IMG/VR virus record: IMGVR_UViG_3300044297_000148
Location: 1 to 61,426 of that record
Source of the DNA: a virus
Taxonomy: Duplodnaviria; Caudoviricetes
Reading direction: 5' to 3' (one strand)
DNA length: 61,426 nucleotides
The notes under the pieces were generated by a model. It worked only from the letters and a program-made list of their open reading frames with translations, made no database searches and was not told where the DNA came from. Shown in pieces: positions 4,193 to 60,756 of this stretch. Within the stretch, counting starts at the first letter, position 1. Each line of letters opens with the position of its first letter. The position numbers and the translations under genes were made by a program.

Positions 4193-4507
4193 TCATACGA
4201 TCCGTCCTTTATCATTCTTCTGTCTATTTGCTTCTTCTTCGCGCATCTGATCGGCCTTCCACAGCATGCGACCCATGGCGTGCACTTCGGGAGCAATAGC
4301 TTTGATTTCTACACCTGTTACAAACGGGCAAACTCTCGGTGTTGACTTATTCAAGGTACCATCCCAATGCTCGGTGTAATTTTCAAACGTATGGGCTCGG
4401 CGCATGAAGGTGTACGCAAGGTCAAGCGGCATGATGATCTGCGTGAATGAACCAATGCTCAGTATGGCAAGTGGCTCTTTGTGGTTCTGATCTTTGCTAT
4501 CTTCCAT
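4193..4507 (-). CDS. Hypothetical protein
   Basis: ATG at 4507 just after the vWA stop, GGAGG RBS. Confidence 0.55.
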   Translation of the reverse strand: MEDSKDQNHKEPLAILSIGSFTQIIMPLDLAYTFMRRAHTFENYTEHWDGTLNKSTPRVCPFVTGVEIKAIAPEVHAMGRMLWKADQMREEEANRQKNDKGRIV

Positions 4508-4508
4508 C

Positions 4509-5681
4509 TCACACCTCCACATGAAGTGTGCGGCCCGTAGTAGCACTCGCACGTTTGTTGTTGATGACACACCAAAGCACCGGTGCATTCCATCCAGACC
4601 CCCAATCCGTGCCGACATAGCCATCTGTCAACACCACGATGCACTCAGGCTTGATGCTGTGCTCAAGCAGGTACGCAGAAACACATGACGGGGCAGTACC
4701 CCCGCCGCCCTTGGGCCGGGTAGAGGACATAAGGCTTTCGTATTGTCCCTGCCCGTACTTCTCATGAGCGGCGACACGCGCATCCCAGTAGATCAAGTCC
4801 AGCAGTTCCGGGTTGATCACATTGCATATCCCAGCAACCTCACCCAAGAAGCGGCTGATCATTACCCCGTCGATAGAGCCCGAAGTGTCCACGGCGATCA
4901 CAAGCCTACCCATGGACTCGGTGAAGGATGACGGGGTGTAGACGCCGCTATCGATGCTGCGCCGGTTCGGACGCCGCCATGTGCTCATGTCGTGCCCCTT
5001 GCAAAGGGAAGTGACAAACTCCCAAAGCTCCTGCTGCCAGTTCACCTTCGGTGCCAGTATCTCCCCCACCGCACGGTCAATCTCCCCGCCCAGTACGCCT
5101 TTCAATAAACTCCCTTGGCGAAGGGCGTTCTCGATTACGGCGTCAACTTCGGCCTTCGCCTGCTTGCCCCGAGCGTTTGCCTTGCCCCACTCGTGGACAT
5201 CAAACCCCTTACTCTGATGACCGTTCCCCTCCTTGCGAAGCAGCCGGTAGACTTCCCCCGCATCCATGCCAGCAAAGCGTTCATCGAGAAGCCCCCCGAT
5301 CTTGGGCATGGCGAGAAAGCCATCCTCACAGGAACGCATGATCATCAGGTTGATGACGTAATCACACGCCGCGTTTGCCGTGCCCGGGTCTTCCTGCCAC
5401 ATGGTGTACCAAGTGCTCAGGTGGCGCAGTGCCTTGTGCAGGTTCTCGTGCAGGATGACAAAGCGTAACTCCGGGTCCGGCATGCTGGAGATAAACGCTT
5501 TGGAGTAGATGACGTTGAAGCCATCGGTTGCAGCAGTGGGTACCTCCCCTGTCTCATCCACTCTCGCCTCGCCTGACATGATGATCCCACCCAGCGAGCG
5601 ATAGTGCTTATGGGTAATGAGCGCGAGCATGTTCTTCTGCAGCCGCTGGTGCGGCGTCAGGTTACCGTCATAGTTTGTCAT
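4509..5681 (-). CDS. Metallopeptidase + vWA-like domain protein (DUF2201-type)
   Basis: TAATDG, HENLH (HExxH), NAACDYVIN, MIDAS DTSGS, GGGT, LTDG; start moved to ATG 5681. Confidence 0.9.
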   Translation of the reverse strand: MTNYDGNLTPHQRLQKNMLALITHKHYRSLGGIIMSGEARVDETGEVPTAATDGFNVIYSKAFISSMPDPELRFVILHENLHKALRHLSTWYTMWQEDPGTANAACDYVINLMIMRSCEDGFLAMPKIGGLLDERFAGMDAGEVYRLLRKEGNGHQSKGFDVHEWGKANARGKQAKAEVDAVIENALRQGSLLKGVLGGEIDRAVGEILAPKVNWQQELWEFVTSLCKGHDMSTWRRPNRRSIDSGVYTPSSFTESMGRLVIAVDTSGSIDGVMISRFLGEVAGICNVINPELLDLIYWDARVAAHEKYGQGQYESLMSSTRPKGGGGTAPSCVSAYLLEHSIKPECIVVLTDGYVGTDWGSGWNAPVLWCVINNKRASATTGRTLHVEV

Positions 5682-43594: not shown

Positions 43595-46500
43595 ATGCCA
43601 ATCTATAAAGTAAGCGCCCCGGACGGTAATATCTATGACATCCAAGGACCGGAGGGTGTATCTCAAGAAGAAATTTTTGATGCACTCCTTCACCTGAACC
43701 CCGATGCGGGCAAACCTAAAAGCGTGCTTGGGTACGCTAAAGAATCAGGTAAAGCCCTGATTAGCGGCGGTGTTGGAGCGCTGGCGTCAATCGGAAAAGG
43801 TGCAGCCGCTGCGCTGCCGGAAGAACTCGAAACCAAGGCACGAGAACAGATCTCCAAAGCAGCACAACGGGTTTCTCCAAGACTCAGCCCCACATATGCG
43901 GATACCTTGCCAGTAGAGATTGCCTCTGGTGTAGGCAGTATGCTTGCTCCTGCCCTTATTCCGGGTGGGGTCCCCGCAAGAATTGGGGCGTTCGGTGCCA
44001 TGGGCGCAAGTCAGGCCCGTGAAGCCGCAGAAAAATTCGGTGCTACTGAAGAAGAGCGTCGCCAAGCTACCATTCTTGGTATCTTCCCCGGTGCGACTAA
44101 TATCATCCCACTTGAGCGGCTGCTTGGGCGGTTTGGGGCGACACCGGTCAAAGGGATGGTATCTCGTGTAGCCCGGGCATTTGAGACAGGCGGGCTGGAA
44201 GCGGCGCAAAACGCTGCCGAAGAAATGGGCCAGCAAGCGGTCAAGCAAATTACCTATGACCCTAACGCGCCATTGCTTGAAGGTTCAGAAGACGCACTGC
44301 GGCAGGGGTTTGAAGCGGGTGCGGCTGCACAGCTTCTTTTGGACGCCGTAATTCCGGGCAGAGGCCGTGCAGTCAAGGGGGCACCTGCTCCTGAAAAACA
44401 AATGTCCGCCCCTGCGCAGGAAACACCGGAAGAACTAAAAGCGCCCGTAAAAAGTGCGGTTGACGAGGTGTGGCCCCATCTGGTCCAGCAAGAATCAGGT
44501 GGTAAGCAGTTCAAACCCGGCACCAAAGAGCCTCTTACGTCGCCCAAGGGAGCGGTAGGCGTTGCTCAAGTCATGCCTGATACCGCCAAAGAAGCCGCAA
44601 AACTTGCTGGCGTTCCATTCGATGAGAAAAAGTATAAAACGGATAGAGCGTATAACGAGTTATTGGGCAAAGCTTATTTTGAAAAACAGCTTCAAGATTC
44701 CAACGGGGACGTAGCGCAAGCCCTTGCACGATATAACGCAGGTCCCGGTGCTGTCGATGATTTTTTGAACGGTACTAATAATTCGGGAAAAAACCCAAAG
44801 AAAATAAAAACTGAAAATGGCATACCTCCGTTCAAAGAAACCCAGAAGTATGTAAAAACCATCATGGCAAGGATGGCTCCCGCCGCTCCTGCCGCTCCCG
44901 CCGCTCCCGCCGCTCTTACTTTGGCTAAAGCCAAAGTTGGTGAAGCTCAACAGGTTGCACCTAAAGTAACCCCGGAAGCTGCGCCTGAAGTAACCCCGGA
45001 AGCTGCACCTGAAGTAACCCCGCAAGCTGCGCCTGAAGCCGCGCCTGAAGTAACCCCGGAAGCCGCGCCGCCTGCCGTTGGTGTCATCACTGATGATGTC
45101 CTTAAGTCTTTCGGGATTAAAGGATACGGTTCAACGAAAGCCAAGGAAGCTTTGCGCGGTCTTGACCTGAACACAGAAGAGGGTCAAAAAGTCTATGACG
45201 AGGTGTTCAACGGGCCAAAGTTCAAGCAGTTGAAGTACGATGCGGCCAAAGTTGAAGAATTCTCGAAAGCTGTACCTGTACTCTATGCACCTTCCGGTGT
45301 AGCTGCACCTGTCCAACCCCAACCTAGCGGACCCAAAACCAATGCACCCGCACCTATTGTTGGAGAACCTGACGTTGCCGCAGGTGGAAGAGGCGCTGGC
45401 GAACCTGTACTTCCAGAAGCTGCCGAGGGAGCCGCGTCTGCAGCAGTTGAGCGAGGAGGAGTGGCAGGTCCTGAGCAACCTGTTGGTGGCCCTGTTGAGG
45501 GAGAAAAACCAGTCACCGCTCCAGTAAAAGAAGAAGTCCTGCGTGCAGAGCCCAGACCCGCTGTAGCAAAAAAAGCTAAAAAAGAAACTACACCACCCGA
45601 GATTGATGCGTCTCTTGCTGCGCTTGATACCAACATCAGCCAACAACTATACGAAGCGCATCTTGATTATCTGGTAAGCGAAGCTACTTACAACGACCGC
45701 GATGGCAGGTACGCCAAAACAAAACTTGAAGAAGCACAGGTTCCGGCGGCTGATCTTTTTGCTGCTCAATCGCGGGTAGCAGGTCGCACGGCAAAAATTG
45801 AATCCGCAGACCGTGCTAGGGTCATTACCAAACTTGAAGAAATAGACGACCAACTTTCAGGAATCAGCCACGATCTTAATGAGGCTATCGAGAATAAGAA
45901 AGATACTAGTGCCCTGCGTAGCCAGCAGCAGAAACTGCTTGCCCAGAGAAAAGATGTAACCAAGGAAGCCAAGCGGCTTGGTATTTCCCCGAAAGCAAAA
46001 CGGGTTGATGTTCGCCATATCCGCACCGCGCGTAAAAGCGTTGGAGAAGTTGGTGCGCCTACCGGCAACACTGCTGATCGTGTTGCGAAGGAAATAGAAC
46101 GTGTCATGCGTCCGGGTTCCGGGTTTGAGCGCATCACGACCGTTGTGCAAACCGAAGAAGGATTGCCTGATGCAGTGCGCAGTGCTCCTGACTATGCACC
46201 GGGTGTGCGGGGCGTTGCCTATAAAGGGCGTATCTGGCTTGTAGCGGACAATATTCCGCAGGGGCGTGAACTGGGCGTATTCCTGCACGAAGCGGGTGCC
46301 CACCTTGGATTCGATCAAGTCCTGAAACCCGGTGATCGTGAGCATCTCGCCCGCACCGTAAAGAACTGGTCAAAAGGCTCCGACCTCAAGGCCCAAGCAG
46401 CCAAGATTGCCCTTGCCAAGGGCGGCAAATCGAACGACGAAATCATCGCGTACACGGTCGAAGAGCTTGTCAATCGAGGTGTAAAACCGCAGGGACTTCG

Positions 46501-49333
46501 CCCGGAATCCACTTGGCTCGCCCGGGTAAAAGCAGCGTTCAAGCGGGCGATGGCTAAGTTGGGCCTGCGGGGAGAATTTACAGAACAGGATCTGGTGGAC
46601 GCTGCGTTCGGCGCGGCTCATATCGCCGTGAAGGCCCCGGGCAAAACGCAGGAAGGGCCAAGATTTTCAACCGCCAACGCGGCAATGGACGGAGTGAGCG
46701 AACGGGATTTCAGGACATTCACTGGTCCGACTGCCACCAAGAGCCTTGTAAAAGACGCAATCAACACCGCTGTCGGTCCCGGTGGTGGTAGTGTTATCCA
46801 GAAAATCCGCCAAAACATGGCGAGCCGATACACTTGGTGGGAGGACTTTCTTACTTCAATCAACGGCAATAGCGCCACTGACGCCGCAGGTATGGCAAGT
46901 GCCTACGACCGGCTGCATGCGTCTTCCAAAATCACGGGTATCCAGCTTTCCACGCTTGAACTAGGTGGTTTTGGCAAAGCAGAAAACGGTATGTGGGAAG
47001 CCCAGAAGACCGATGCAAGCTTCAAGGATGTCATCAGTGAAGTAAACAAGATGGTCGGTAAGTATCGCCGTACCCCCACATTCGAGGATGCACAGACTTT
47101 CTTTAATATGGCCGCGATTGCCAAGCGTGAAGAGGGTTTAATCGCTTCTGGAAAAATTGAAGCCGGGGAAATCAAACGTACCATCAGCGATGAACAGTTG
47201 AAACAAGGGCTGGCGATCTACGAAAGCACCCCCGAAATCCAAAACGCCCTTCGTCTGTATGAAAAGTTCAATAACCGCAATGTCGATTCGATGGTTACGG
47301 CGGGTCTGATTGACGCGGAAACGGCCAAAGACCTGAAGGGTGCGGCTGGCTACGTACCGTGGTTCCGGTTCACCGAGGACAAAGAAGGCAATATCAACAT
47401 CAAAGCCGTGAAGGACTACGCAAAAGGACTCATCAACCTGAGTAACATGCGAGACCTTGAAGGTGGCAAGATTGAAGATATCCAGATCAATAACATTCTG
47501 GATAACATGGCTAAACTCAGCAACTGGATGGTCAACAAATCGATTGGTAACGACACGGCTGAGTATATGCTTCGTTACGCTTTGAAGTATAAGCAAGCCC
47601 GAAAAGTCGGTTCGTTCGATGCCTCCGGTGTCGACCCTCGTAAAGTCGTGCAAATCATGCGCGAAGGTAAGCCTGAATTTTACGAATTTGCCGACCCAAT
47701 GGCTCTACCGGCCTTCAAGGGTTATGAAACCGCTCACGGTGCGATGGTCAGTGCCATGGCTGCACCTGCGAACCTGCTTCGTAAGGGTGTCACCCTGTAC
47801 CCGGTGTTTGCGCTGGGGCAGCTTCCCCAAGACTCGTTGAGGGCGTTTATCTTCAGTGGTTTGAAAAATCCGTTTGCTATTTTTCCTAAAGTGCTCACCA
47901 ATTTTGTCAAAGAAGTATTTGGCGGGACCGAGACCAGTCACAGGCTTGCCCAGTACGGGATTGTGGGAAGGGCGCTGGACATCCCCCGGGGTGAAGTCAC
48001 CAAACATTTCCGCAAAGAACTTGGCCTTGATCGCAGTGCGTTTGGCGCAGGGCTCGGGTTTTTTGAGAAGTGGAGTAACGCTTCCGATGCGGCTATCCGC
48101 ACGACGCTTTATGAACTGACCCTTAAGGAAGGTGGCAGCGAAGCTCTTGCAATCCGCAGGGCGCGTGACATCATCAACTTTGATATTCAAGGCTCAAGCG
48201 GGTATTCAAGTTTCCTGCGCCAGACCGTGCCGTTCATGGGTGTGTACATGAATGACCTTAACAACCTCTACAAGGGGTTGGTGCTTGGCAGGGGGCGTTT
48301 GAGCGAGACCGAAGCGGGAGCGGTACGCCGCGCCATTCTGTATAGGGGCATGCAACTTGGGGCGTTGACCGCGTTGTACACGCTCATGGCTTCTGATGAT
48401 GACGACTACAAGAATCTTGATGACGCAACCCGTAACCGTAGCTTCATCATCCCCGGGGCTAATTTGCGTATTCCAGTGCCCAGTGACGGTGTGGGGTTCA
48501 TGTTCAAAGTCATACCCGAACAGATCATGCGCTACATGCTCGCCGAAGGGATCGAATCGGAAGATGCGGGTTCTCGTGTAGGAAGAGCGCTTTTCACCGG
48601 GTTTTCTCAACTCGGTAGTTTTGAAAACTTCTTGCCCCTTGCGGTGCGCGTGCCTATTGAATTGGCACTTAACCGCAGCTTCTACACACAGAATCCAATT
48701 GTAGGGAAATCAAAGGAGCATCTTGAACCGTACAATCAGTTCACGGACTCCACAGGCGAAATAGCCAAGCAACTTGGCCTTGCCTTGAATGTATCACCGC
48801 TTAAACTTGAATACTTCCTGCGGGGATACTCAGGGCAGATGGGGGGTGCGGTCTACGCAATGACGAATGCTCTTATGGACGCCGCTGAAGGTAAAGTCAC
48901 GCCGTCCCTGCGCCTTGAAGATTACCCGGGGCTGAAACAATTCACCTATAGTTCGTCGGATAAGGCTGATCTTGAGAACTTTTACGAGATGCGCGACCAG
49001 ATTGACCGCGTAGCACGCACCTACAACGACATGATCAAGTCCGGGCGTGGCGAAGAAGCCATTGCGTACATGAACGACCCGGAAAACCAACAGACCTTTG
49101 CGCTTCGTAAGTACCAAACGCAAGTCGATGGTGTCATGCAAAAACTCCGGGAACAGCGCAAGCTCATTTTTGCAAGTAAAGACCTCAGTGCAGATGAGAT
49201 GCGGGATAAACTTGACCAGCTTGATGAATTCCAAACCAAGTTCCTGCGCAGCCTGCAGCTTCCCCGTGCACGAGCCTTTGCTGGAGTGGAGCCCAATATC
49301 AATGACTGGGCGCTGCTGCGGATGTTCAAGTAA
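43595..49333 (+). CDS. Large polyvalent ejection protein: lytic transglycosylase + zincin metallopeptidase + LPD38-like C-terminus
   Basis: QESGG...GAVGVAQVMPDTA...YNAGPG...ETQKYV (SLT); LHEAGAH...EIIAY; ELALNRSFY...SPLKLEYFLRGYSG. Confidence 0.8.
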   Translation: MPIYKVSAPDGNIYDIQGPEGVSQEEIFDALLHLNPDAGKPKSVLGYAKESGKALISGGVGALASIGKGAAAALPEELETKAREQISKAAQRVSPRLSPTYADTLPVEIASGVGSMLAPALIPGGVPARIGAFGAMGASQAREAAEKFGATEEERRQATILGIFPGATNIIPLERLLGRFGATPVKGMVSRVARAFETGGLEAAQNAAEEMGQQAVKQITYDPNAPLLEGSEDALRQGFEAGAAAQLLLDAVIPGRGRAVKGAPAPEKQMSAPAQETPEELKAPVKSAVDEVWPHLVQQESGGKQFKPGTKEPLTSPKGAVGVAQVMPDTAKEAAKLAGVPFDEKKYKTDRAYNELLGKAYFEKQLQDSNGDVAQALARYNAGPGAVDDFLNGTNNSGKNPKKIKTENGIPPFKETQKYVKTIMARMAPAAPAAPAAPAALTLAKAKVGEAQQVAPKVTPEAAPEVTPEAAPEVTPQAAPEAAPEVTPEAAPPAVGVITDDVLKSFGIKGYGSTKAKEALRGLDLNTEEGQKVYDEVFNGPKFKQLKYDAAKVEEFSKAVPVLYAPSGVAAPVQPQPSGPKTNAPAPIVGEPDVAAGGRGAGEPVLPEAAEGAASAAVERGGVAGPEQPVGGPVEGEKPVTAPVKEEVLRAEPRPAVAKKAKKETTPPEIDASLAALDTNISQQLYEAHLDYLVSEATYNDRDGRYAKTKLEEAQVPAADLFAAQSRVAGRTAKIESADRARVITKLEEIDDQLSGISHDLNEAIENKKDTSALRSQQQKLLAQRKDVTKEAKRLGISPKAKRVDVRHIRTARKSVGEVGAPTGNTADRVAKEIERVMRPGSGFERITTVVQTEEGLPDAVRSAPDYAPGVRGVAYKGRIWLVADNIPQGRELGVFLHEAGAHLGFDQVLKPGDREHLARTVKNWSKGSDLKAQAAKIALAKGGKSNDEIIAYTVEELVNRGVKPQGLRPESTWLARVKAAFKRAMAKLGLRGEFTEQDLVDAAFGAAHIAVKAPGKTQEGPRFSTANAAMDGVSERDFRTFTGPTATKSLVKDAINTAVGPGGGSVIQKIRQNMASRYTWWEDFLTSINGNSATDAAGMASAYDRLHASSKITGIQLSTLELGGFGKAENGMWEAQKTDASFKDVISEVNKMVGKYRRTPTFEDAQTFFNMAAIAKREEGLIASGKIEAGEIKRTISDEQLKQGLAIYESTPEIQNALRLYEKFNNRNVDSMVTAGLIDAETAKDLKGAAGYVPWFRFTEDKEGNINIKAVKDYAKGLINLSNMRDLEGGKIEDIQINNILDNMAKLSNWMVNKSIGNDTAEYMLRYALKYKQARKVGSFDASGVDPRKVVQIMREGKPEFYEFADPMALPAFKGYETAHGAMVSAMAAPANLLRKGVTLYPVFALGQLPQDSLRAFIFSGLKNPFAIFPKVLTNFVKEVFGGTETSHRLAQYGIVGRALDIPRGEVTKHFRKELGLDRSAFGAGLGFFEKWSNASDAAIRTTLYELTLKEGGSEALAIRRARDIINFDIQGSSGYSSFLRQTVPFMGVYMNDLNNLYKGLVLGRGRLSETEAGAVRRAILYRGMQLGALTALYTLMASDDDDYKNLDDATRNRSFIIPGANLRIPVPSDGVGFMFKVIPEQIMRYMLAEGIESEDAGSRVGRALFTGFSQLGSFENFLPLAVRVPIELALNRSFYTQNPIVGKSKEHLEPYNQFTDSTGEIAKQLGLALNVSPLKLEYFLRGYSGQMGGAVYAMTNALMDAAEGKVTPSLRLEDYPGLKQFTYSSSDKADLENFYEMRDQIDRVARTYNDMIKSGRGEEAIAYMNDPENQQTFALRKYQTQVDGVMQKLREQRKLIFASKDLSADEMRDKLDQLDEFQTKFLRSLQLPRARAFAGVEPNINDWALLRMFK

Positions 49334-53817: not shown

Positions 53818-55377
53818 CTAAAGATTTACAACTTCCCCAAGTTCTTCCTTGTATAGATCGACCAAGCGTTGGTGTACATCTATTTTGTTCTGCAGCATTT
53901 TGTACATCCGTCGCTCAACTCTACTGCCCTGCAAATGCACTACTGTTACCTTGTTCACCTGACCCGCCCGATGCACCCGGGCGTTGGCTTGCAAGTACGT
54001 CTCCACGCTCATCACCGGCGACCAATACACAATTACGTTGGCAGCGTGAAGTGTTACCCCGTGCGATGCAGCCTGCGGCTGGATCACCAGCACCTGCGGC
54101 TCGCTTGTGGTCTGGAAGCGGTTAAATATCTCAGTTCGTTTGTTTGGTGCGACAGCGCCGTTGATGATTTCGTTTGTTATATTTTTGGTCTTGAGCCAGC
54201 CTGAAATCATCTCCAGACTATGCGTGTAAGGCACGAATATAAGCACCTTATGGCTTGCCTCGTCAATCACTTCTTTGAGCGCCTGCAGTCGGTTGTTGCA
54301 GTCAAACTCAATTACTTCGCGGGTGTCTGAATAAACTGCTCCACCGGAAATCTGAAGTAATTTACTCAACATTGCCGCAGCGTTCGGTGCGCTGATTTCC
54401 TCGCCCGCCGCCACGACTAGCTGTTGCCGCAAGAATCGCTCGTAGTATTCCTCCTGCTGCTTGGTAAGCTCGACATCTCGCGTGACATACATCATCTCAG
54501 GCAGGTCAAGGCATTCTTCTTTGGTAAACCTGATTGCCGGTTGCAGCGCGTTAAATACGATGTCGCTTGCATTGGGCTTAGGCACATACTTGAAGCGCGT
54601 GATCTGCGTCATCACCGAATCCCTGAACGCACCAAAGAATTTCGGCACTTTGTTCGGGTTGATGATCTTGGCAAGTCCATAGGCGTCCACGGGCGACTGC
54701 GAAGCGGGGGTACCCGTCATCATCCACACCCACGTATGCGGCTTGATCAGTTTGGTGAGGGTTTTCCAGCGTTTGCTGGTATGGCTTTTGAAATTGTTTG
54801 CCTCGTCAATAACGAAAAGATCAAAGTCACCTGCCTCTTCAATAGCCTCAGCAACTATATCAAGTCCTTCAGGATTGATGATGACAAACTCTGCGTTGCC
54901 CTTGATGATACGACTGCGTTTTTCTGAACGCGGATGGTGGGCTATGTCACAACTGCGGTGCATGGCGAACTTAAAAAGATCCCCTTGCCATGCAGACCCC
55001 ATGATGGACACGGGACAGACCACAAGCACGCGACGAAGGCGCTTTACGTTCATGAGGAAGTCTGCTGCCCATATCACGCTTGCGGTCTTGCCCGTGCCTT
55101 GGCTGTTGAAGCAGAAACACCGCCTGTGAAGCGTAAAGAATTCAGCCGTGGTTCGTTGATGCGCAAAGGGCTTGTGCATCCCGGGCCAATCGTAACTGCG
55201 AAGAATCGGGGAAGGGACGTTCTTCACCTGCAGATTCTTCAATACCTGCACTTCCTCCAGTCCCCAGCGCACCAGCACCTCATGTTCGCCAACCTGTTTG
55301 CTGCATGGAATGACTGACGTGATGCGCTGCGGGTCGCGCACGCGAAGGTGTAGAGCTTTATTTTCTATTATCTGCAA
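53818..55377 (-). CDS. SNF2-family helicase
   Basis: QGTGKT, IDEA, MTGTP, HGVTL, QANARVHRAGQ. Confidence 0.9.
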   Translation of the reverse strand: MQIIENKALHLRVRDPQRITSVIPCSKQVGEHEVLVRWGLEEVQVLKNLQVKNVPSPILRSYDWPGMHKPFAHQRTTAEFFTLHRRCFCFNSQGTGKTASVIWAADFLMNVKRLRRVLVVCPVSIMGSAWQGDLFKFAMHRSCDIAHHPRSEKRSRIIKGNAEFVIINPEGLDIVAEAIEEAGDFDLFVIDEANNFKSHTSKRWKTLTKLIKPHTWVWMMTGTPASQSPVDAYGLAKIINPNKVPKFFGAFRDSVMTQITRFKYVPKPNASDIVFNALQPAIRFTKEECLDLPEMMYVTRDVELTKQQEEYYERFLRQQLVVAAGEEISAPNAAAMLSKLLQISGGAVYSDTREVIEFDCNNRLQALKEVIDEASHKVLIFVPYTHSLEMISGWLKTKNITNEIINGAVAPNKRTEIFNRFQTTSEPQVLVIQPQAASHGVTLHAANVIVYWSPVMSVETYLQANARVHRAGQVNKVTVVHLQGSRVERRMYKMLQNKIDVHQRLVDLYKEELGEVVNL

Positions 55378-55512
55378 GTTTCACCCATAATGGCTCCGCG
55401 AGGCCGAAGCGGTCGTTTGCTTCGTCCTTTGCTTTTTATGAAGCTCACCTCTTGGCGGGCGAGTCGAACAACTATCATCCCCCTTTTTCGGGGGGATGTC
55501 AAACAGGTTTGG

Positions 55513-55788
55513 TTACTTCTTCGGGCGGTTGCGCTTGACCGTGTGATCGCTGTTACGGCTGAAAGAGCGGTTGGAGCTTACTGTCTTCAGGCGCAGATTA
55601 CCCGGCGCGTTGGTGCCACCTTTGGACAAGGGCACGATATGGTCAATATCCTTACCCTTGCGGTCCACACCTTTTTTGTCCATGGCATACCGCGCACGGG
55701 CACGCGCTGCACGCTCAGGTTTCTCACCGCGTTGCTTTTCCATCTGCCATTCGTGCTTATAGGGCCGAGGGGATTTTGTATAGGGCAT
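55513..55788 (-). CDS. Small HNH endonuclease
   Basis: DIDHIVPLSKGGTN...NLR....SNRS. Confidence 0.85.
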   Translation of the reverse strand: MPYTKSPRPYKHEWQMEKQRGEKPERAARARARYAMDKKGVDRKGKDIDHIVPLSKGGTNAPGNLRLKTVSSNRSFSRNSDHTVKRNRPKK

Positions 55789-55797
55789 TGCTGTCTC

Positions 55798-56460
55798 CTA
55801 TCGTGCTTTGCCATTGTGTTCACAAGAGAGCACCGGGCACCACGCCTTGCAAGTGAAATTCTGTTTGGGGTTCCATATGTCAAACTGGTACGCCGTATCA
55901 AGTTGGTTTGACTGATCCAACCATTTTTTCCACCGTTCTTCCTGCTCCACTGTCTCAAACCGCTCCCTGACGAACGCGGGATGCACGACAAAAAGGAGTC
56001 CTGCTTTTACTACCTCTACTTCGGGGAAATGCTTGAAAACCGCGAGTGACAGCAACTCAAGCTGTTTCGTATCGGGGTAGGTATTTTTGCCGGTCTTGTA
56101 GTCGATCAGACTCGCTTTGGGGCCGTTGACCACCAGCAAATCCGCGATTCCACGCCACCATACTTCCTTATCAAAAAACCCACACGGCTGAAGTTGCGCA
56201 GTGAGCCCCATGCGATGCTCACAATACACCTGTCCTTGCATGGCCTTCAGCCGGTCAAGCGGTTCTTTCATGTAGGCAAGATACCCGGGCAGGTCCTTGC
56301 CATCCCTCACGTAATCCTCGGCAGCTTTATGCGCGTCAAGTCCGTAACGCATTTGTGCTGACTGCGGCTCTACAATGTCCTTTGCTACTCTCAGATGGTA
56401 GTATTTTTTGGGGCATTGCTGGAACAGCGACATGCTGCTGTAGGACCACGCCTTGGGCAT
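55798..56460 (-). CDS. PD-(D/E)XK (Cas4/RecB-like) exonuclease
   Basis: WSYSS...CP; GIADLL...IDYKTGK; C..CP...C. Confidence 0.85.
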   Translation of the reverse strand: MPKAWSYSSMSLFQQCPKKYYHLRVAKDIVEPQSAQMRYGLDAHKAAEDYVRDGKDLPGYLAYMKEPLDRLKAMQGQVYCEHRMGLTAQLQPCGFFDKEVWWRGIADLLVVNGPKASLIDYKTGKNTYPDTKQLELLSLAVFKHFPEVEVVKAGLLFVVHPAFVRERFETVEQEERWKKWLDQSNQLDTAYQFDIWNPKQNFTCKAWCPVLSCEHNGKAR

Positions 56461-56473
56461 CTATGCTTCCTTG

Positions 56474-57424
56474 TTAACACTGACCATAGTTTTCCCCTAT
56501 CCCTGACTCGCAATTAAGCGGCAAGCCTTGCGCCCATTCCGGAGCCCAGCGCATGCACTCTTCTACGTAAGCTTGCGATTCAAGGGCTTCTTCTTTCTTT
56601 ACGACACAGCCAATAGCATCGTGCACAGTCAAAACTACCCGGTACCGTTTAGAAATACGAATCATCTGCAGCCCGATAATTATGCGGGCTAAATGCTGCA
56701 CAATATTTTCCGTGAGCTTACCGCCCCAGATGTCGGTCTTCCCGGTACGAGAATCATACAGGAACTTTTCCTGACCCTTGGGGTCACGCCAACGCCGAAG
56801 CCGATGATACTTAATAGGTATCCCCAGAGGGGTGTGAAACATCCCAAAAGCAAGTTTGATTACTTCTGGCCTGCCAAACGGGGCCGTCTGCCCATCGATT
56901 GCAGCGGCGATAGCAGTGTTACCCTGATCCCATAGTTTAGGAATCTTGAAGTAGTTCCGGCGGTAGGTATCCACGATGTGACGGCATTCATCCAGCGTCA
57001 TCTCAATGGAAGGAGTAGCCCCTTTCAGAAACACCTGCAACTTTGCCGCACCAGTCCCATACCCGCAACCGAGGATTACCGTTTTTCCAACAAAGCGTTC
57101 CTGCTTGGTAATCTGATCCACCGGCTTGGCGTAGATGAGGCTTGCCATGATCGAATAAACGTCCTGTTTATTCCTGAACGCTTCTACAAGATCGGTTTGC
57201 CCGGAGAGCCATGCAAGAATGCGGGCCTCGATCTGGGCTGAGTCTGCGTCGATGATGACGTACCCGGGCGGAGGCAAAATGGAGCTTTTCAACGTACCAG
57301 CGTTTTCGCCCCGGCTTGGTAGATTCTGAAGATTTATCTTGTCTGAGTTATGCACCAACTTACCGTTGGCGACAAATCGATGGCGGGGTCCGCAGTTTTG
57401 AATGTCATACACCGCGACGAGCAT
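56474..57424 (-). CDS. polA: DNA polymerase A, C-terminal fragment, with 26-aa IntC of a split intein
   Basis: MLVAVYDIQNCGPRHRFVANGKLVHN|SDKINLQNLP; motif A DSAQIEAR, B RFVGKTVILGCGY, C TVHD; own GGAG RBS. Confidence 0.92.
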   Translation of the reverse strand: MLVAVYDIQNCGPRHRFVANGKLVHNSDKINLQNLPSRGENAGTLKSSILPPPGYVIIDADSAQIEARILAWLSGQTDLVEAFRNKQDVYSIMASLIYAKPVDQITKQERFVGKTVILGCGYGTGAAKLQVFLKGATPSIEMTLDECRHIVDTYRRNYFKIPKLWDQGNTAIAAAIDGQTAPFGRPEVIKLAFGMFHTPLGIPIKYHRLRRWRDPKGQEKFLYDSRTGKTDIWGGKLTENIVQHLARIIIGLQMIRISKRYRVVLTVHDAIGCVVKKEEALESQAYVEECMRWAPEWAQGLPLNCESGIGENYGQC

Positions 57425-58169
57425 ATTTTCTCCGGTTCAAAATTTCTTCGTCAGTTGTACCTTGCGTAATCCACAGCCGCAAGGTTTCATACGTTAAATC
57501 ATCGCGCAATGCTTTGAGACGACGGATGCGTTCTCCGTTCTGCGTTCTTTTGTACGCACGCTTGTTACGCGCTTGCTCCGTGCGCGACGCCCACCGTAAG
57601 TTGCCCGGCTCATAGTGGCGGTTGTTGTCTACGCGGTCTATGCTATGAAACGGTGACGGACGCACCCCCAAGTTATCTAACACCCACTCTGCGAACGCCC
57701 TGACAGACACAAACTTAAACGCGATACCACGCCCCCCATAGTTGGAGTACCCGAGACTATTTGGGTTAGTACAACGCTGCTTTGCGCCAGCAGCGATATT
57801 GAGCACATGGCTCAATGCCTCTTCGTACTTTTCTTTGTAAGGATCGCGGCGGTCAGCTAGTTTTAGTACAGCCGCTAAAGAAGCTTTTTTAGCCGCTGCA
57901 ATACGTTGCTCCACTGGTACGCGCAACATTCTCAACTTCACTGAGCAAGAACGACAACATCGGGATTTCTGGTCCAGAAGCTCGCGTACCCGCACCAACC
58001 GTTCCCGCCCACACTGGCACTTACACCTGAGCTTGTCTTTTGTTGTCACCCACAAAGAGTCTTGCGGTGTCCACATCGTCTTGGGAAGGGCATCCTCCAA
58101 CCTTGATTTTGTGTTGTCCCTGCATCGCCTCTCGTAAGCTAATCTCTCCGGCGTCTGTAAATACGGCAT
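57405..58169 (-). CDS. HNH homing endonuclease between the split-intein halves (start 58169 or 58076)
   Basis: CKCQCG...CRSC; KQRC.NPN...YGGRGI...SIDRVDNNRHYEPGNLRWA...Q..N. Confidence 0.88.
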   Translation of the reverse strand: MPYLQTPERLAYERRCRDNTKSRLEDALPKTMWTPQDSLWVTTKDKLRCKCQCGRERLVRVRELLDQKSRCCRSCSVKLRMLRVPVEQRIAAAKKASLAAVLKLADRRDPYKEKYEEALSHVLNIAAGAKQRCTNPNSLGYSNYGGRGIAFKFVSVRAFAEWVLDNLGVRPSPFHSIDRVDNNRHYEPGNLRWASRTEQARNKRAYKRTQNGERIRRLKALRDDLTYETLRLWITQGTTDEEILNRRKYARRGV

Positions 58170-59340
58170 GGTCTTCGGTCCCTTTTACCCCGTCCCACTC
58201 GATGACTTCAGAGAAGCCGCTGAACACCACCCCTTCGTGGGGTACGAACGCTTCTCCGTCCCATACAAGGTCATCCAGCAATACGTCCACAATCCTTTTG
58301 GTTTCTACCCCGTTGACCAAATTGTAGACCGTAACCTCCGTATCGGCAACTAAACAACCGCCCCATCTCCCCGTGTGTGCGGCAAAGTATTTCAACGGTA
58401 TGGGCAGCGGGCCACGCTGCGCGATGTCAAGAAACCGCTCGGTACGTGTCTCCTCAATGGTTGACTTCACGCCAAGGCGCACCCCCACGAGCGTCTGCAC
58501 ACCAACATCGGGGTGCTCCAGCAAGTTTTTCATTGCCTGATCGGTCTTGGCGAAAGCAAATGTCGGCTTACCCGTGCGTGCGCTAATCTTGGTCGGCGGG
58601 TTTACCCCGTGCTCAATCAGCAACTGCGCGAACTTGGCGTTGCTCATGAGGGATTTCTTGTTGGTTTTCTTTTCTTCCTCGTCCTCCACTGAGCCGAAGA
58701 GTGAAGCAAGCAGGACTTCTTTCTTCTGGCGTACCTCATGCAGATGCTGCTCAAGGAGCAGTGCGTCCAGCCGCAACACAGGCTCGGTGAACATCTTGAG
58801 AGTCAGGTCAATGAGCTTTAACTCAGTGGGGGGAAACCCCTCCACCATCTTCTGGAAAAGCTTATAAGTAAGCTCGGTGTCGTTGCAGCAGTACCTACCA
58901 TACGCAGCAAGCTCTTCCGGGGTGAAACCCACGCGCCGCTTGCCAAGCGCGTTCTGGACCTCCGTGCCTTTCACGCCAACCCCATAGTGCTCGACCAGCT
59001 TTGCCAAGCTACCCCCGACTTCAATGCCATGCAGGGGGCGTGACATGCTCAAGGTATCAGCCAGAACCCTTGGGTGAATATCAAAAATCCAGCTAAGGAT
59101 GGCACCATCAAACAATGCGTTGTGAGCAAGCGCTATCGAATCCGCCCAAGGAAATTGCATGAGAAAGGTCTTGGTCTCTTCCTTGGTGCCGCTGAACCAA
59201 CTGACTGTACTATTATTCTGCTTGACGGATACCCCGATTACTTCAAATCGGTCATCACGGATGTATTGCTCGGTAGTCAGTTTCGATAGGGAGTATTCCT
59301 TGTCGTAATACGTCTCAAAATCTACTGTAAGCAGTGGCAT
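58021..59340 (-). CDS. polA: DNA polymerase A, N-terminal fragment (3'-5' exonuclease), with 111-aa IntN
   Basis: DFETY, AHNALFD, YCCND exonuclease motifs; HTGRWGG|CLVADTEV block A; GTEDHAV block B. Confidence 0.92.
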   Translation of the reverse strand: MPLLTVDFETYYDKEYSLSKLTTEQYIRDDRFEVIGVSVKQNNSTVSWFSGTKEETKTFLMQFPWADSIALAHNALFDGAILSWIFDIHPRVLADTLSMSRPLHGIEVGGSLAKLVEHYGVGVKGTEVQNALGKRRVGFTPEELAAYGRYCCNDTELTYKLFQKMVEGFPPTELKLIDLTLKMFTEPVLRLDALLLEQHLHEVRQKKEVLLASLFGSVEDEEEKKTNKKSLMSNAKFAQLLIEHGVNPPTKISARTGKPTFAFAKTDQAMKNLLEHPDVGVQTLVGVRLGVKSTIEETRTERFLDIAQRGPLPIPLKYFAAHTGRWGGCLVADTEVTVYNLVNGVETKRIVDVLLDDLVWDGEAFVPHEGVVFSGFSEVIEWDGVKGTEDHAVFTDAGEISLREAMQGQHKIKVGGCPSQDDVDTARLFVGDNKRQAQV

Positions 59341-59342
59341 CC

Positions 59343-59552
59343 CTATCCCCTGTACTTATGCCGCTTGGCAGCTTCGTTTGCTGCCTTGAATGAAAGGATG
59401 AACGAAGTGGAGGTGCGCTTGTAGCACGCCATGCAACGCCAGCGGGTGGCGCGTCCGTTCTGCACTTTGACTTTTTTGACCCCCGGTGCAATCCAACAGG
59501 TTTGGCACATGGGTTGCAGGGAGCTAGGCGTTTTGGTGGACATCAATTTCAT
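59343..59552 (-). CDS. Small Zn-ribbon protein
   Basis: CQTC...WRCMAC. Confidence 0.55.
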   Translation of the reverse strand: MKLMSTKTPSSLQPMCQTCWIAPGVKKVKVQNGRATRWRCMACYKRTSTSFILSFKAANEAAKRHKYRG

Positions 59553-59754
59553 TCAAACAGTAAAGTTTTACAGAGCGCGCGGCCAGCACAATTTCATCGG
59601 CCAGATCAGCGGCTTTCTTCCAGTCTTTTTTCAACAGGGCGTCGTGCGCTTCCAGCCTCAACTGCCTGATCCTGATCATCCCTTCCGAATAGTCCGGGAT
59701 ATTTTTCGTAAAGTTTTGCCTTGAAGTAGTCGTTGCCTGTACCTGTCCAGCCAT
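59524..59754 (-). CDS. Hypothetical protein
   Basis: GGGAG RBS; DYSEG...helical. Confidence 0.55.
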   Translation of the reverse strand: MAGQVQATTTSRQNFTKNIPDYSEGMIRIRQLRLEAHDALLKKDWKKAADLADEIVLAARSVKLYCLNEIDVHQNA

Positions 59755-59787
59755 AAACGATGCTCCCTATACCAGTCCATTTGTCCA

Positions 59788-60117
59788 TCACTTCACCCTG
59801 AGAAGCCAAGTCATCTGCGCAGCAGATATCTTCTGCAGCGATTGCCTTGTCCCCACTAGATCACCGTCCTTGTCCCGGCCAAACGTCACGCAGGGCCACA
59901 TGCAGCGGTCTTCTTTTTGCATCTGGGCCTTGAATTCGGGAGTGCAGTCCTCGCAGTAACTGTTGCGGTAATCTACATTACCGGCAGTCCGGGCAAGTTT
60001 TCGCCATTCAAACCACTGCTCTTGGTCTGTGAAACAAGGCGGTGGTGTGGTCAGCAGTTTACCCCGCAGATCGATATACTCCTCTTCCGACAAATCAAAA
60101 TCCTTGCGTCTTGTCAT
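59788..60117 (-). CDS. Cys-containing hypothetical protein
   Basis: PPCF....W..W...YCEDCTPEF...RC; start at ATGA overlap 60117. Confidence 0.65.
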   Translation of the reverse strand: MTRRKDFDLSEEEYIDLRGKLLTTPPPCFTDQEQWFEWRKLARTAGNVDYRNSYCEDCTPEFKAQMQKEDRCMWPCVTFGRDKDGDLVGTRQSLQKISAAQMTWLLRVK

Positions 60118-60251
60118 GCACCCGCCTTCATTTTCAAGTACCAATACAAAACCACGCCAAGCAAACTGCAAAGCGTAGCAGCGAAAAACCCAAGATAGTA
60201 CGCCTTGAGCAGCGCACCTTTTTCCACCACTATCATGTCGGTTATCTTCAT
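60114..60251 (-). CDS. Small membrane protein
   Basis: 45-aa ORF read manually with YYLGFFAATLCSLLGVVLYW helix. Confidence 0.45.
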   Translation of the reverse strand: MKITDMIVVEKGALLKAYYLGFFAATLCSLLGVVLYWYLKMKAGA

Positions 60252-60396
60252 TTATCACTCCCCCTTCCCCCGGACTCTCGCTGCGCGGCTTCCCGTCCCC
60301 AACATACACAGTGGGCAGACGCCATTCTTACGGCGCACGGGTAAACCGCAGCGGCATCGGTAAATAGGCCTGTCGTTCATCGCTCGTCTCCAGTGT

Positions 60397-60756
60397 TCAT
60401 AGCTTTAGCCCCTTGCATAGCTCAAGCGTCAGCCGTTCAGCTAGTTCACCGAATATTTGGCGGGCGATCTCGGGCTTTCCTTGGTGGGCGAATGCCTTGC
60501 CCTTGATCTCCTTGCGCTGGCCGTTCAGTTCGTAGTGGAACGAGTAGCGGATGCTGTCGTCCATATCGTCTTTGTAAGTGATGCACCGCCCCTTGAACGT
60601 GTTGCTCTCCAGCAGGAAGGACTCAGTTACCTTCTGCCGGGCGGCATCCTCCATTTCCTTGAGCAACCGGACGCTCTCATCCGTAGGTGCTCGTTTCTCG
60701 GTGAAATGAACATCGACCGAGGACGGGCCATGCTGGACGCGATAAGTGTCAAACAT
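60397..60756 (-). CDS. Hypothetical protein
   Basis: GGAGG RBS before MFDTYRV; EKRAPTDESVRLLKEME. Confidence 0.6.
   Translation of the reverse strand: MFDTYRVQHGPSSVDVHFTEKRAPTDESVRLLKEMEDAARQKVTESFLLESNTFKGRCITYKDDMDDSIRYSFHYELNGQRKEIKGKAFAHQGKPEIARQIFGELAERLTLELCKGLKL

Follow-up and report, generated by a model that had tools for sequence, protein, structure and literature searches.

The window analysed here is the whole of IMG/VR virus record IMGVR_UViG_3300044297_000148, from a freshwater phage (Duplodnaviria; Caudoviricetes), a stretch of 61,426 bp estimated to be 97% complete, in which the gene for a family A DNA polymerase (PolA) is fractured and very probably harbors a functional split intein. 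The locus consists of three co-oriented, overlapping open reading frames (ORFs) on the minus strand, each in a different frame (Table 1): ORF1 encodes the N-terminal part of the polymerase (N-extein) followed by the N-terminal intein half (IntN), ORF2 is a free-standing homing-endonuclease-like gene, and ORF3 encodes the C-terminal intein half (IntC) followed by the rest of the polymerase (C-extein). A first-pass annotation, made from the letters of this DNA, had described a polymerase that breaks at HTGRWGG and runs on into an intein with its Cys1 codon at 58356-58354, a block B TEDH and a stop after 111 residues. It had also described a separate gene, preceded by GGAG and lying in another frame, that starts with a 26-residue IntC ending in His-Asn and continues with Ser+1 and DKINLQNLP. 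All of these elements are present in the sequence: the Cys1 codon is TGT, block B (GTEDH) spans IntN residues 59-63, the IntN stop is a TAA at 58023-58021, and ORF3 opens with MLVAVYDIQNCGPRHRFVANGKLVHN (26 amino acids), directly followed by S-DKINLQNLP. That two-gene description was right for both halves and left the third gene, ORF2, undescribed. Excising both intein parts yields TGRWGG-SDKINLQNLP, and both domains of a family A polymerase are found in the exteins. The N-extein matches the Pfam 3'-5' exonuclease domain DNA_pol_A_exo1 (PF01612, 2.6e-07) and phrog_17, DNA polymerase; the C-extein matches Pfam DNA_pol_A (PF00476, 3e-35), NCBIfam DNA polymerase I (3.3e-30) and phrog_17 (8.6e-60). 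IntN itself matches phrog_26005 at 6.5e-27, and an intein-free homologue of the polymerase, 636 amino acids long and annotated as DNA polymerase I, is found in Rhizobium phage RHph_TM3_14A.

If the inserted sequence is an intein, its removal should restore a segment that is contiguous in relatives, as the first-pass annotation had proposed. A scan of IMG/VR with ORF1 gave at least 581 relatives, the best 80 of which were kept, and the five parts (N-extein, IntN, ORF2, IntC and C-extein) were placed on these loci by tblastn. In 76 of the 80, N-extein residue 328 continues in frame into residue 1 or 2 of the C-extein, exactly where the window is interrupted; the intein is present in the remaining four. 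The empty sites share one pattern, all 76 having HTGR(W/F)GG and then x-D-K/Q-I/V/L-N/K. The N-extein is 38-66% identical to the N-exteins of related loci. An empty site was also found in a contig from a run of another study (X7), in which window position 57334 is joined to 58372 with 27 other letters between them. Since 15 nucleotides (nt) among these 27 letters stand for N-extein and 12 nt for C-extein, what is missing from the contig is exactly the stretch that begins with the Cys1 codon and ends with the Asn26 codon, 1010 nt in all. Over the flanks, the contig departs from the window at 37 of 1250 positions, and directly beside the site at 13 of 27; local sequence divergence is usual around homing sites. 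In other words, the boundaries of the element are exact, and the presence or absence of the intein is polymorphic among close relatives.

The residues on which splicing chemistry depends are strongly conserved. Among 17 aligned IntN sequences, C1, D29-E35, H40, T60 and H63 are invariant, and among 13 IntC sequences the same holds for V5, Y6, D7, C11, G12, P13, R16, A19, N20, G21, H25 and N26, with H15 and S27 conserved in at least 90%. The residue directly after the intein is a nucleophile in all 19 intein-bearing alleles compared (Ser in 18, Cys in one), and the 76 empty alleles have D (64), A (8), T (2), L (1) or Q (1) at this position. This association of a +1 nucleophile with the intein (Fisher p = 5e-18, for loci that are related to one another) is as selection for splicing chemistry predicts.

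The division of the intein into separate genes is conserved as well. A protein search with ORF1 residues 300-439 gave 290 matches at E <= 0.001 among 444 candidates. Of the best 120, which were listed, 117 have an IntN-type ending, with Cys1 and block B and an end 105-155 residues after Cys1, and none of these 117 contains an IntC motif; the other three fall outside the motif pattern used. A second scan of IMG/VR, using IntN by itself, returned 38 loci, 26 of which (L085-L110) carry an intein at this site; several of these 26 recur from the first scan, as identical contigs or as duplicates. IntN, ORF2 and IntC are separate ORFs in 23 of these 26; of the other three, one (L085) lacks ORF2 and two end at a contig edge. 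The frames follow each other as f, f+1 and f+2 in 22 of the 23, the exception being L110, which has a different frame relation. The start Met of IntC is kept in 18 of 19 loci examined, purine-rich sequence lies upstream of it in related loci, and none of six contiguous alleles has a Met at this position. The first-pass annotation had allowed for two indel errors hiding a single contiguous intein-HNH frame. Contigs from runs of two further studies (X4 and X6) carry no indels relative to the window where they cover it, which includes the ORF2 start and the IntC start in both and the IntN stop in X4 only. Together with the conserved stops and starts, these independent contigs exclude assembly error and make recoding unlikely. 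The split allele is not rare and is widespread in metagenomes and environmental phages; in the GenBank phage collection no record carries it, and none of the 15 ORF1-matching records there covers 80% of ORF1. Two variants of the split allele were seen. In L085 (the same contig as L005; 3001-3410), the endonuclease gene is absent, only 8 nt separate the IntN stop from the IntC ATG, which is in another frame, and the first ~44 overlapped ORF2 codons are retained. In P0080 (474 amino acids), IntN runs in frame into the C-terminal tail of the endonuclease, in what looks like an internal deletion of ORF2.

For the fold of the intein, we made use of contiguous mini-inteins that occupy the same site in six relatives (L111, P0126, P0129, P0133, P0136 and P0148). 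The L111 intein (P0124) is 48% identical to IntN, and a structure model of this intein with its flanks, built with a 40-row alignment, reached a predicted local distance difference test (pLDDT) score of 83.6, with values above 90 over the intein. All 18 Foldseek matches of this model in the PDB at E <= 0.001 are inteins or intein-like (BIL) Hint domains, with the Ssp and Npu DnaB inteins and gp41-1 at the top and Npu DnaE and NrdJ-1 also present. The halves from the window, IntN (317-439) and IntC (1-42), were co-folded and are predicted to form a complex, with an ipSAE score of 0.67 against 0.00 for the best of three controls; in a benchmark, the mark set for this score was reached by 58 of 80 solved complexes and by 2 of 110 mismatched pairs. 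Separate runs agree in at least 88% of contacts, with partner pLDDT of at least 62, and the predicted interface comprises the N-splice junction (residues 327-332), the IntN strand KIKV (412-416) and IntC residues 1-27, leaving the last 23 IntN residues outside. This co-fold score may reflect likeness to split-intein complexes already solved in the PDB rather than proven binding. The predicted binding joins the exact site, the catalytic residues, the conserved stop and start, the absence of indels and the fold of the homologue in supporting a naturally split intein, the reading that had been proposed at first pass. A further contiguous mini-intein of the same family was seen in Moraxella phage Mcat21 (L001 2806-3738), in a 310-amino-acid hypothetical protein belonging to phrog_26005. 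Its Cys1 is preceded by a polymerase-like flank, AHTGRYGG, in a host protein that is not a polymerase, as though the intein had been transferred with part of its extein attached.

Several observations weigh against a split intein of this kind. A check with intein hidden Markov models (HMMs), suggested at first pass, came back empty: the intein and Hint models of Pfam and NCBIfam gave no match to ORF1 or ORF3 at E <= 1, and the intein models of both collections gave none to the 17 IntN sequences at E <= 10. A profile of these 17 sequences found nothing significant among PDB sequences, the best intein being the Nanoarchaeum PolB IntN at E = 0.9. The fold evidence comes from the contiguous relative L111 and not from the window's own halves, and a single-sequence AlphaFold model of L111 reached a pLDDT of only 32.6. 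The evidence for the intein-free allele from run X7 is a single Logan contig with a depth of ~8. As to the short IntC, an upstream GTG, TTG or ATG in 9 of 19 loci could give an IntC of 35-64 residues; in the window, an in-frame TGA lies 4 codons upstream of the ATG, so a longer IntC is impossible in this phage. Finally, ORF2 has no Pfam match, HNH included, at E <= 10, NCBIfam and PDB sequence searches likewise gave no significant HNH signature, and the column before its S176, which would be the candidate first His, holds H in the window and varies (H, Y, F or R) among 16 homologues. Owing to the missing Pfam domain and this variable His column, we call ORF2 'HNH-type' on PHROG and annotation evidence only.

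That evidence consists of matches to phrog_374 (7.5e-32) and phrog_3377 (2.7e-27), both annotated 'HNH endonuclease', and of matches to ORF2 in 826 phage records, many of which carry the same annotation. Across 16 loci, conservation of ORF2 extends from end to end, at 50-71% identity, and includes four invariant Cys residues (a zinc ribbon) and a SIDRVDN...GNLRWA core, in which S176, D178, R179, D181, N182, G189, N190, L191, R192, W193 and the following A are invariant across the 16 loci, as is a further E-Q-A-x-N. Look-alikes retrieved with a protein language model include viral clusters in which a minority of members have I-HmuI-type NUMOD modules, which we take as a lead only. The first 49 codons of ORF2 are overprinted on the last third of IntN, and in the window the ORF2 ATG straddles the codon for the block-B His. 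This start Met is aligned in 17 of 19 sequences, and a downstream ATG (MWTP) in 12 of 19. We analyzed codon-position entropy along the overlap in 18 sequences, counting nt from Cys1 and giving values for IntN-frame positions 1 / 2 / 3. Before the ORF2 start (0-186), these are 0.3-0.6 / 0.3-0.5 / 1.26-1.36, the third position of the IntN frame being the most variable. Between 186 and 231, the values are 0.32 / 0.31 / 0.79, showing constraint on all three positions; between 231 and 321 they change to 1.03-1.08 / 0.68-0.77 / 0.74-0.81, the most variable position now being the third of the ORF2 frame. Past the IntN stop (336-420), only the ORF2 pattern is left (1.63 / 0.91 / 0.84). This pattern of substitution supports translation of the overlap in both frames. 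The overlap binds together two selfish parts, an endonuclease gene and a splicing domain.

The element is better conserved than the gene that carries it. Across 16 distinct loci, mean identity to the window is 68.5% for IntN, 59.2% for ORF2 and 87.5% for IntC, against 51.8% for the N-extein and 44.5% for the C-extein, and IntN identity exceeds N-extein identity in all 16. Together with the empty-site contig, this higher conservation fits horizontal spread by homing.

We infer the following series of events, which includes association of the halves, splicing, endonuclease activity and homing. A mini-intein at the conserved TGRWGG / (D)DKINLQN site would have been broken by a homing-endonuclease gene into IntN (111 residues) and IntC (26 residues), each fused to its extein. 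ORF1, ORF2 and ORF3 would then be translated separately, each from its own start codon, after which IntN and IntC would associate into one Hint-fold domain and carry out class-1 trans-splicing by means of Cys1, the block-B Thr and His, the block-F Asp and His, the terminal His-Asn and Ser+1. The expected product is a 618-amino-acid polymerase with a GG-S-DK junction, having Ser where empty alleles have Asp, and the intein halves would be released. The endonuclease would cut intein-free alleles in co-infecting relatives, so that the whole 1010-nt element spreads by homing.

The polymerase could also work as two subunits without any splicing, with the intein halves serving as a non-covalent dimerization module for PolA-N and PolA-C. 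The tight binding predicted for IntN and IntC fits such a dimer equally well, and fractured genes without inteins whose products work as complexes have been reported, for example the split NrdA of phage Aeh1 (Dassa et al. 2009, PMC2677866). We nevertheless consider this improbable: the class-1 splicing residues are all invariant or nearly so, and the strict pairing of a +1 Ser or Cys with the intein (19/19, against mostly Asp in empty alleles) is explained only by selection for the transesterification step. Moreover, some 137 foreign residues left inside a highly conserved polymerase motif would be expected to disrupt it. There is even less to be said for a contiguous intein, whether broken up by an assembly artefact or read as one IntN-HNH-IntC intein by two +1 ribosomal shifts. 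The succession f, f+1, f+2 in 22 of 23 loci could formally be joined by two such shifts, and contiguous inteins with a nested out-of-frame endonuclease gene do exist at another site in the same polymerase family (Javan113 and L093). We regard this explanation as very unlikely, since the contigs of the two other studies have no indels across the junctions they cover, the stop is at the same position in 117 of the 120 listed relatives, IntC has a conserved Met and a Shine-Dalgarno-like site, and the conserved ORF2 Met lies 149 nt upstream of the IntN stop. Furthermore, L085 has lost the endonuclease gene and still keeps both the IntN stop and an IntC start in another frame, and the frame relation differs in L110.

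Decay of the element, or a defective phage with a broken and non-functional polymerase gene, has a smaller chance still. The endonuclease gene is indeed degraded in some relatives (the IntN-ORF2 tail fusion of P0080 and the ORF2 deletion of L085), but conservation of the coding type is seen in exteins, intein halves and ORF2 alike, between loci with N-extein identities of only 38-60%, and no second polymerase was found in this ~97% complete genome. Least credible of all, with a probability close to negligible, is a group I intron with an endonuclease ORF, spliced out of the transcript. Endonuclease-bearing group I introns have been described for the family A polymerase genes of phages (PMC2677866; PMC7497331); in the region 56300-59500, no Rfam intron family was found at E <= 1, the one sub-threshold match being to an unrelated family, and at each junction the adjoining sequence continues the extein frame and contains conserved intein blocks. 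A functional split intein in a fractured family A polymerase gene is therefore the explanation that we favor.

Table 1. Features of the fractured polymerase locus, in window coordinates.
Feature	Position	Strand	Description
ORF1	58021-59340	-	439 amino acids; N-extein and IntN; ...AAHTGRWGG then CLVADTEV
PolA N-extein	58357..59340	-	328 amino acids; 3'-5' exonuclease domain and N-terminal polymerase part; ends HTGRWGG
IntN	58024..58356	-	111 amino acids; Cys1, block N2 DDLVWDGE, block B GTEDH
IntN/ORF2 overlap	58021..58169	-	149 nt; IntN in frame f, ORF2 in frame f+1
ORF2	57405..58169	-	254 amino acids and stop; free-standing homing-endonuclease-like gene (PHROG 'HNH endonuclease'), third frame
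Shine-Dalgarno-like GGAG	57430..57433	-	5 nt upstream of the IntC ATG
ORF3	56474-57424	-	316 amino acids; IntC and C-extein
IntC	57347..57424	-	26 amino acids; blocks F and G; ends His25-Asn26 (VHN)
PolA C-extein	56474..57346	-	290 amino acids and stop; Ser+1, DKINLQNLP; polymerase catalytic domain
Whole putative mobile element (IntN, endonuclease gene and IntC)	57347..58356	-	1010 nt

The end of ORF2 overlaps the start of IntC by 20 nt. The three ORFs are probably cotranscribed, given that they run in the same direction, overlap and have no convincing terminator between them in a scan of 55300-60400; promoters predicted in the same interval were not above chance (4 found, 3.5 expected). A look through public runs listed no RNA run that contains the locus. 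The minus strand from ~49.6 kb to the end of the window forms a replication module, with genes for a primase/helicase-like protein, a SNF2-type helicase, a small HNH protein, a Cas4/RecB-like exonuclease and the polymerase, in this order. A search of the record for polymerases gave this one match and no other. Between the exonuclease and SNF2 helicase genes lies a 91-amino-acid ORF (55513-55788, minus strand) that matches phrog_4590 and has a weaker match, at 6.6e-07, to an HNH endonuclease family. On the plus strand, 43595-49333 is occupied by a very long ORF of 1912 amino acids.

Inteins were also seen elsewhere in this polymerase family. A second, related intein lies before the CGYG motif in six sequences (L089, L090, L093, L112, P0126 and P0129). 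We considered a polymerase in three pieces for such loci and dropped this for L093, as its second intein (~4300-5000) is contiguous in the polymerase frame, with an apparently broken HNH-like ORF nested in other frames. A third intein-like insertion, with IntN-, HNH- and IntC-like matches, is found near C-extein residue 210 in L095 (2933-3775) and L101 (3472-4359). P0077 (764 amino acids), at one point a candidate for the contiguous form, was rejected as such: it has the split IntN and, in addition, a large intein in the exonuclease domain, between AHN and (C)AFDGA, that is absent from its close relative P0126. The latter intein brings the number of insertion sites in the polymerase family to at least 4. 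In L113, L114 and L117 (3001-4230), a related IntN and IntC are in the same frame, ~0.9 kb apart with stops between them; no ORF2 match was found in the intervening sequence, which may hold a different gene. The annotated 'DNA polymerase I' of Streptococcus phage Javan113 (L123 673-3555, 960 amino acids) has a coding sequence that reads through its intein, the middle of which looks like out-of-frame filler, with an HNH-like match in another frame.

Viewed as a whole, these loci may stand for a large family of natural split inteins that has gone undescribed in the family A polymerases of phages, with a 26-residue IntC and an overprinted endonuclease and still homing among freshwater phages, a wider claim that we put forward tentatively and with less than even confidence. 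Going by its sequences, protein trans-splicing appears to be how this phage group obtains the only DNA polymerase detected in it. As the standard intein HMMs miss the family, such polymerases are annotated as truncated or hypothetical proteins. The site occurs empty, with a contiguous mini-intein, and with a split intein that either has or lacks the endonuclease gene; these states offer a natural series for testing the gene-breaking model of split-intein origin. Natural split inteins are the workhorses of protein ligation, and a Cys1/Ser+1 pair that has a C-fragment of 26 residues and occurs in hundreds of natural variants deserves testing. Provided that splicing is fast, the pair would add a new orthogonal tool for ligation, with a C-fragment accessible to peptide synthesis.

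With an endonuclease gene between, and overlapping, the two halves, the locus is a 'fractured gene' as described by Dassa et al. 2009 (PMC2677866). Alike are the splitting of a replication gene into co-oriented IntN and IntC ORFs with an endonuclease gene between them and the origin of the loci in environmental phage-like DNA. The hosts named there are gp41, IMPDH, DnaE, NrdA, NrdJ, ligase and terminase; a family A polymerase is not among them. The endonucleases there are GIY-YIG or Vsr-like, whereas here a PHROG 'HNH' family is found, with 49 codons overprinted on IntN. The model proposed there, in which a mini-intein is invaded by a free-standing endonuclease gene that is later lost, matches the states seen here, in which the mini-intein is contiguous, split around the gene, or split with no gene between its halves. 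In a phage family B polymerase, a split intein likewise has an HNH-type endonuclease ORF between two polymerase ORFs and, as far as its block motifs go, is similar to ours in style (TEDH in block B, VYDI in block F and VHNS in block G); it differs in having Ser1 instead of Cys1 and in its unrelated insertion site. With Npu and Ssp DnaE, gp41-1 and NrdJ-1, the family shares the fold, as judged by Foldseek with the contiguous homologue, and the class-1 features Cys1 and terminal Asn, but sequence similarity to them is below HMMER/Pfam detection. Typical split inteins have an IntN of ~100-120 and an IntC of ~35-40 residues (PMC12707363); with the 26 residues found here, the break would lie immediately ahead of the block-F strand.

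Contiguous inteins in family A polymerases have been described in bacteria (PMC4760082) and in Staphylococcus phages Remus and Romulus (PMC7497331). Inteins of the same sequence family as ours occur in Streptococcus phages: that of Javan422 is contiguous and 42% identical to IntN over 88 residues, and that of Javan113 keeps an open intein frame, with a related HNH-like ORF (39.5% identity) lying inside it in another frame; unlike ours, both inteins are at another site, before CGYGG. Out-of-frame endonuclease ORFs inside inteins of actinobacteriophages have also been reported, in a preprint (bioRxiv 10.1101/2025.01.02.630785). The first-pass annotation named no earlier split intein in a phage PolA at this site, and a full-text literature search, with intein registries and supplementary survey tables outside its scope, found no report of a split intein in any family A polymerase. 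While the fractured-gene arrangement itself is known, the host protein, a family A polymerase, and the insertion site are new here, and the short IntC and the overprinted endonuclease gene are the less usual features.

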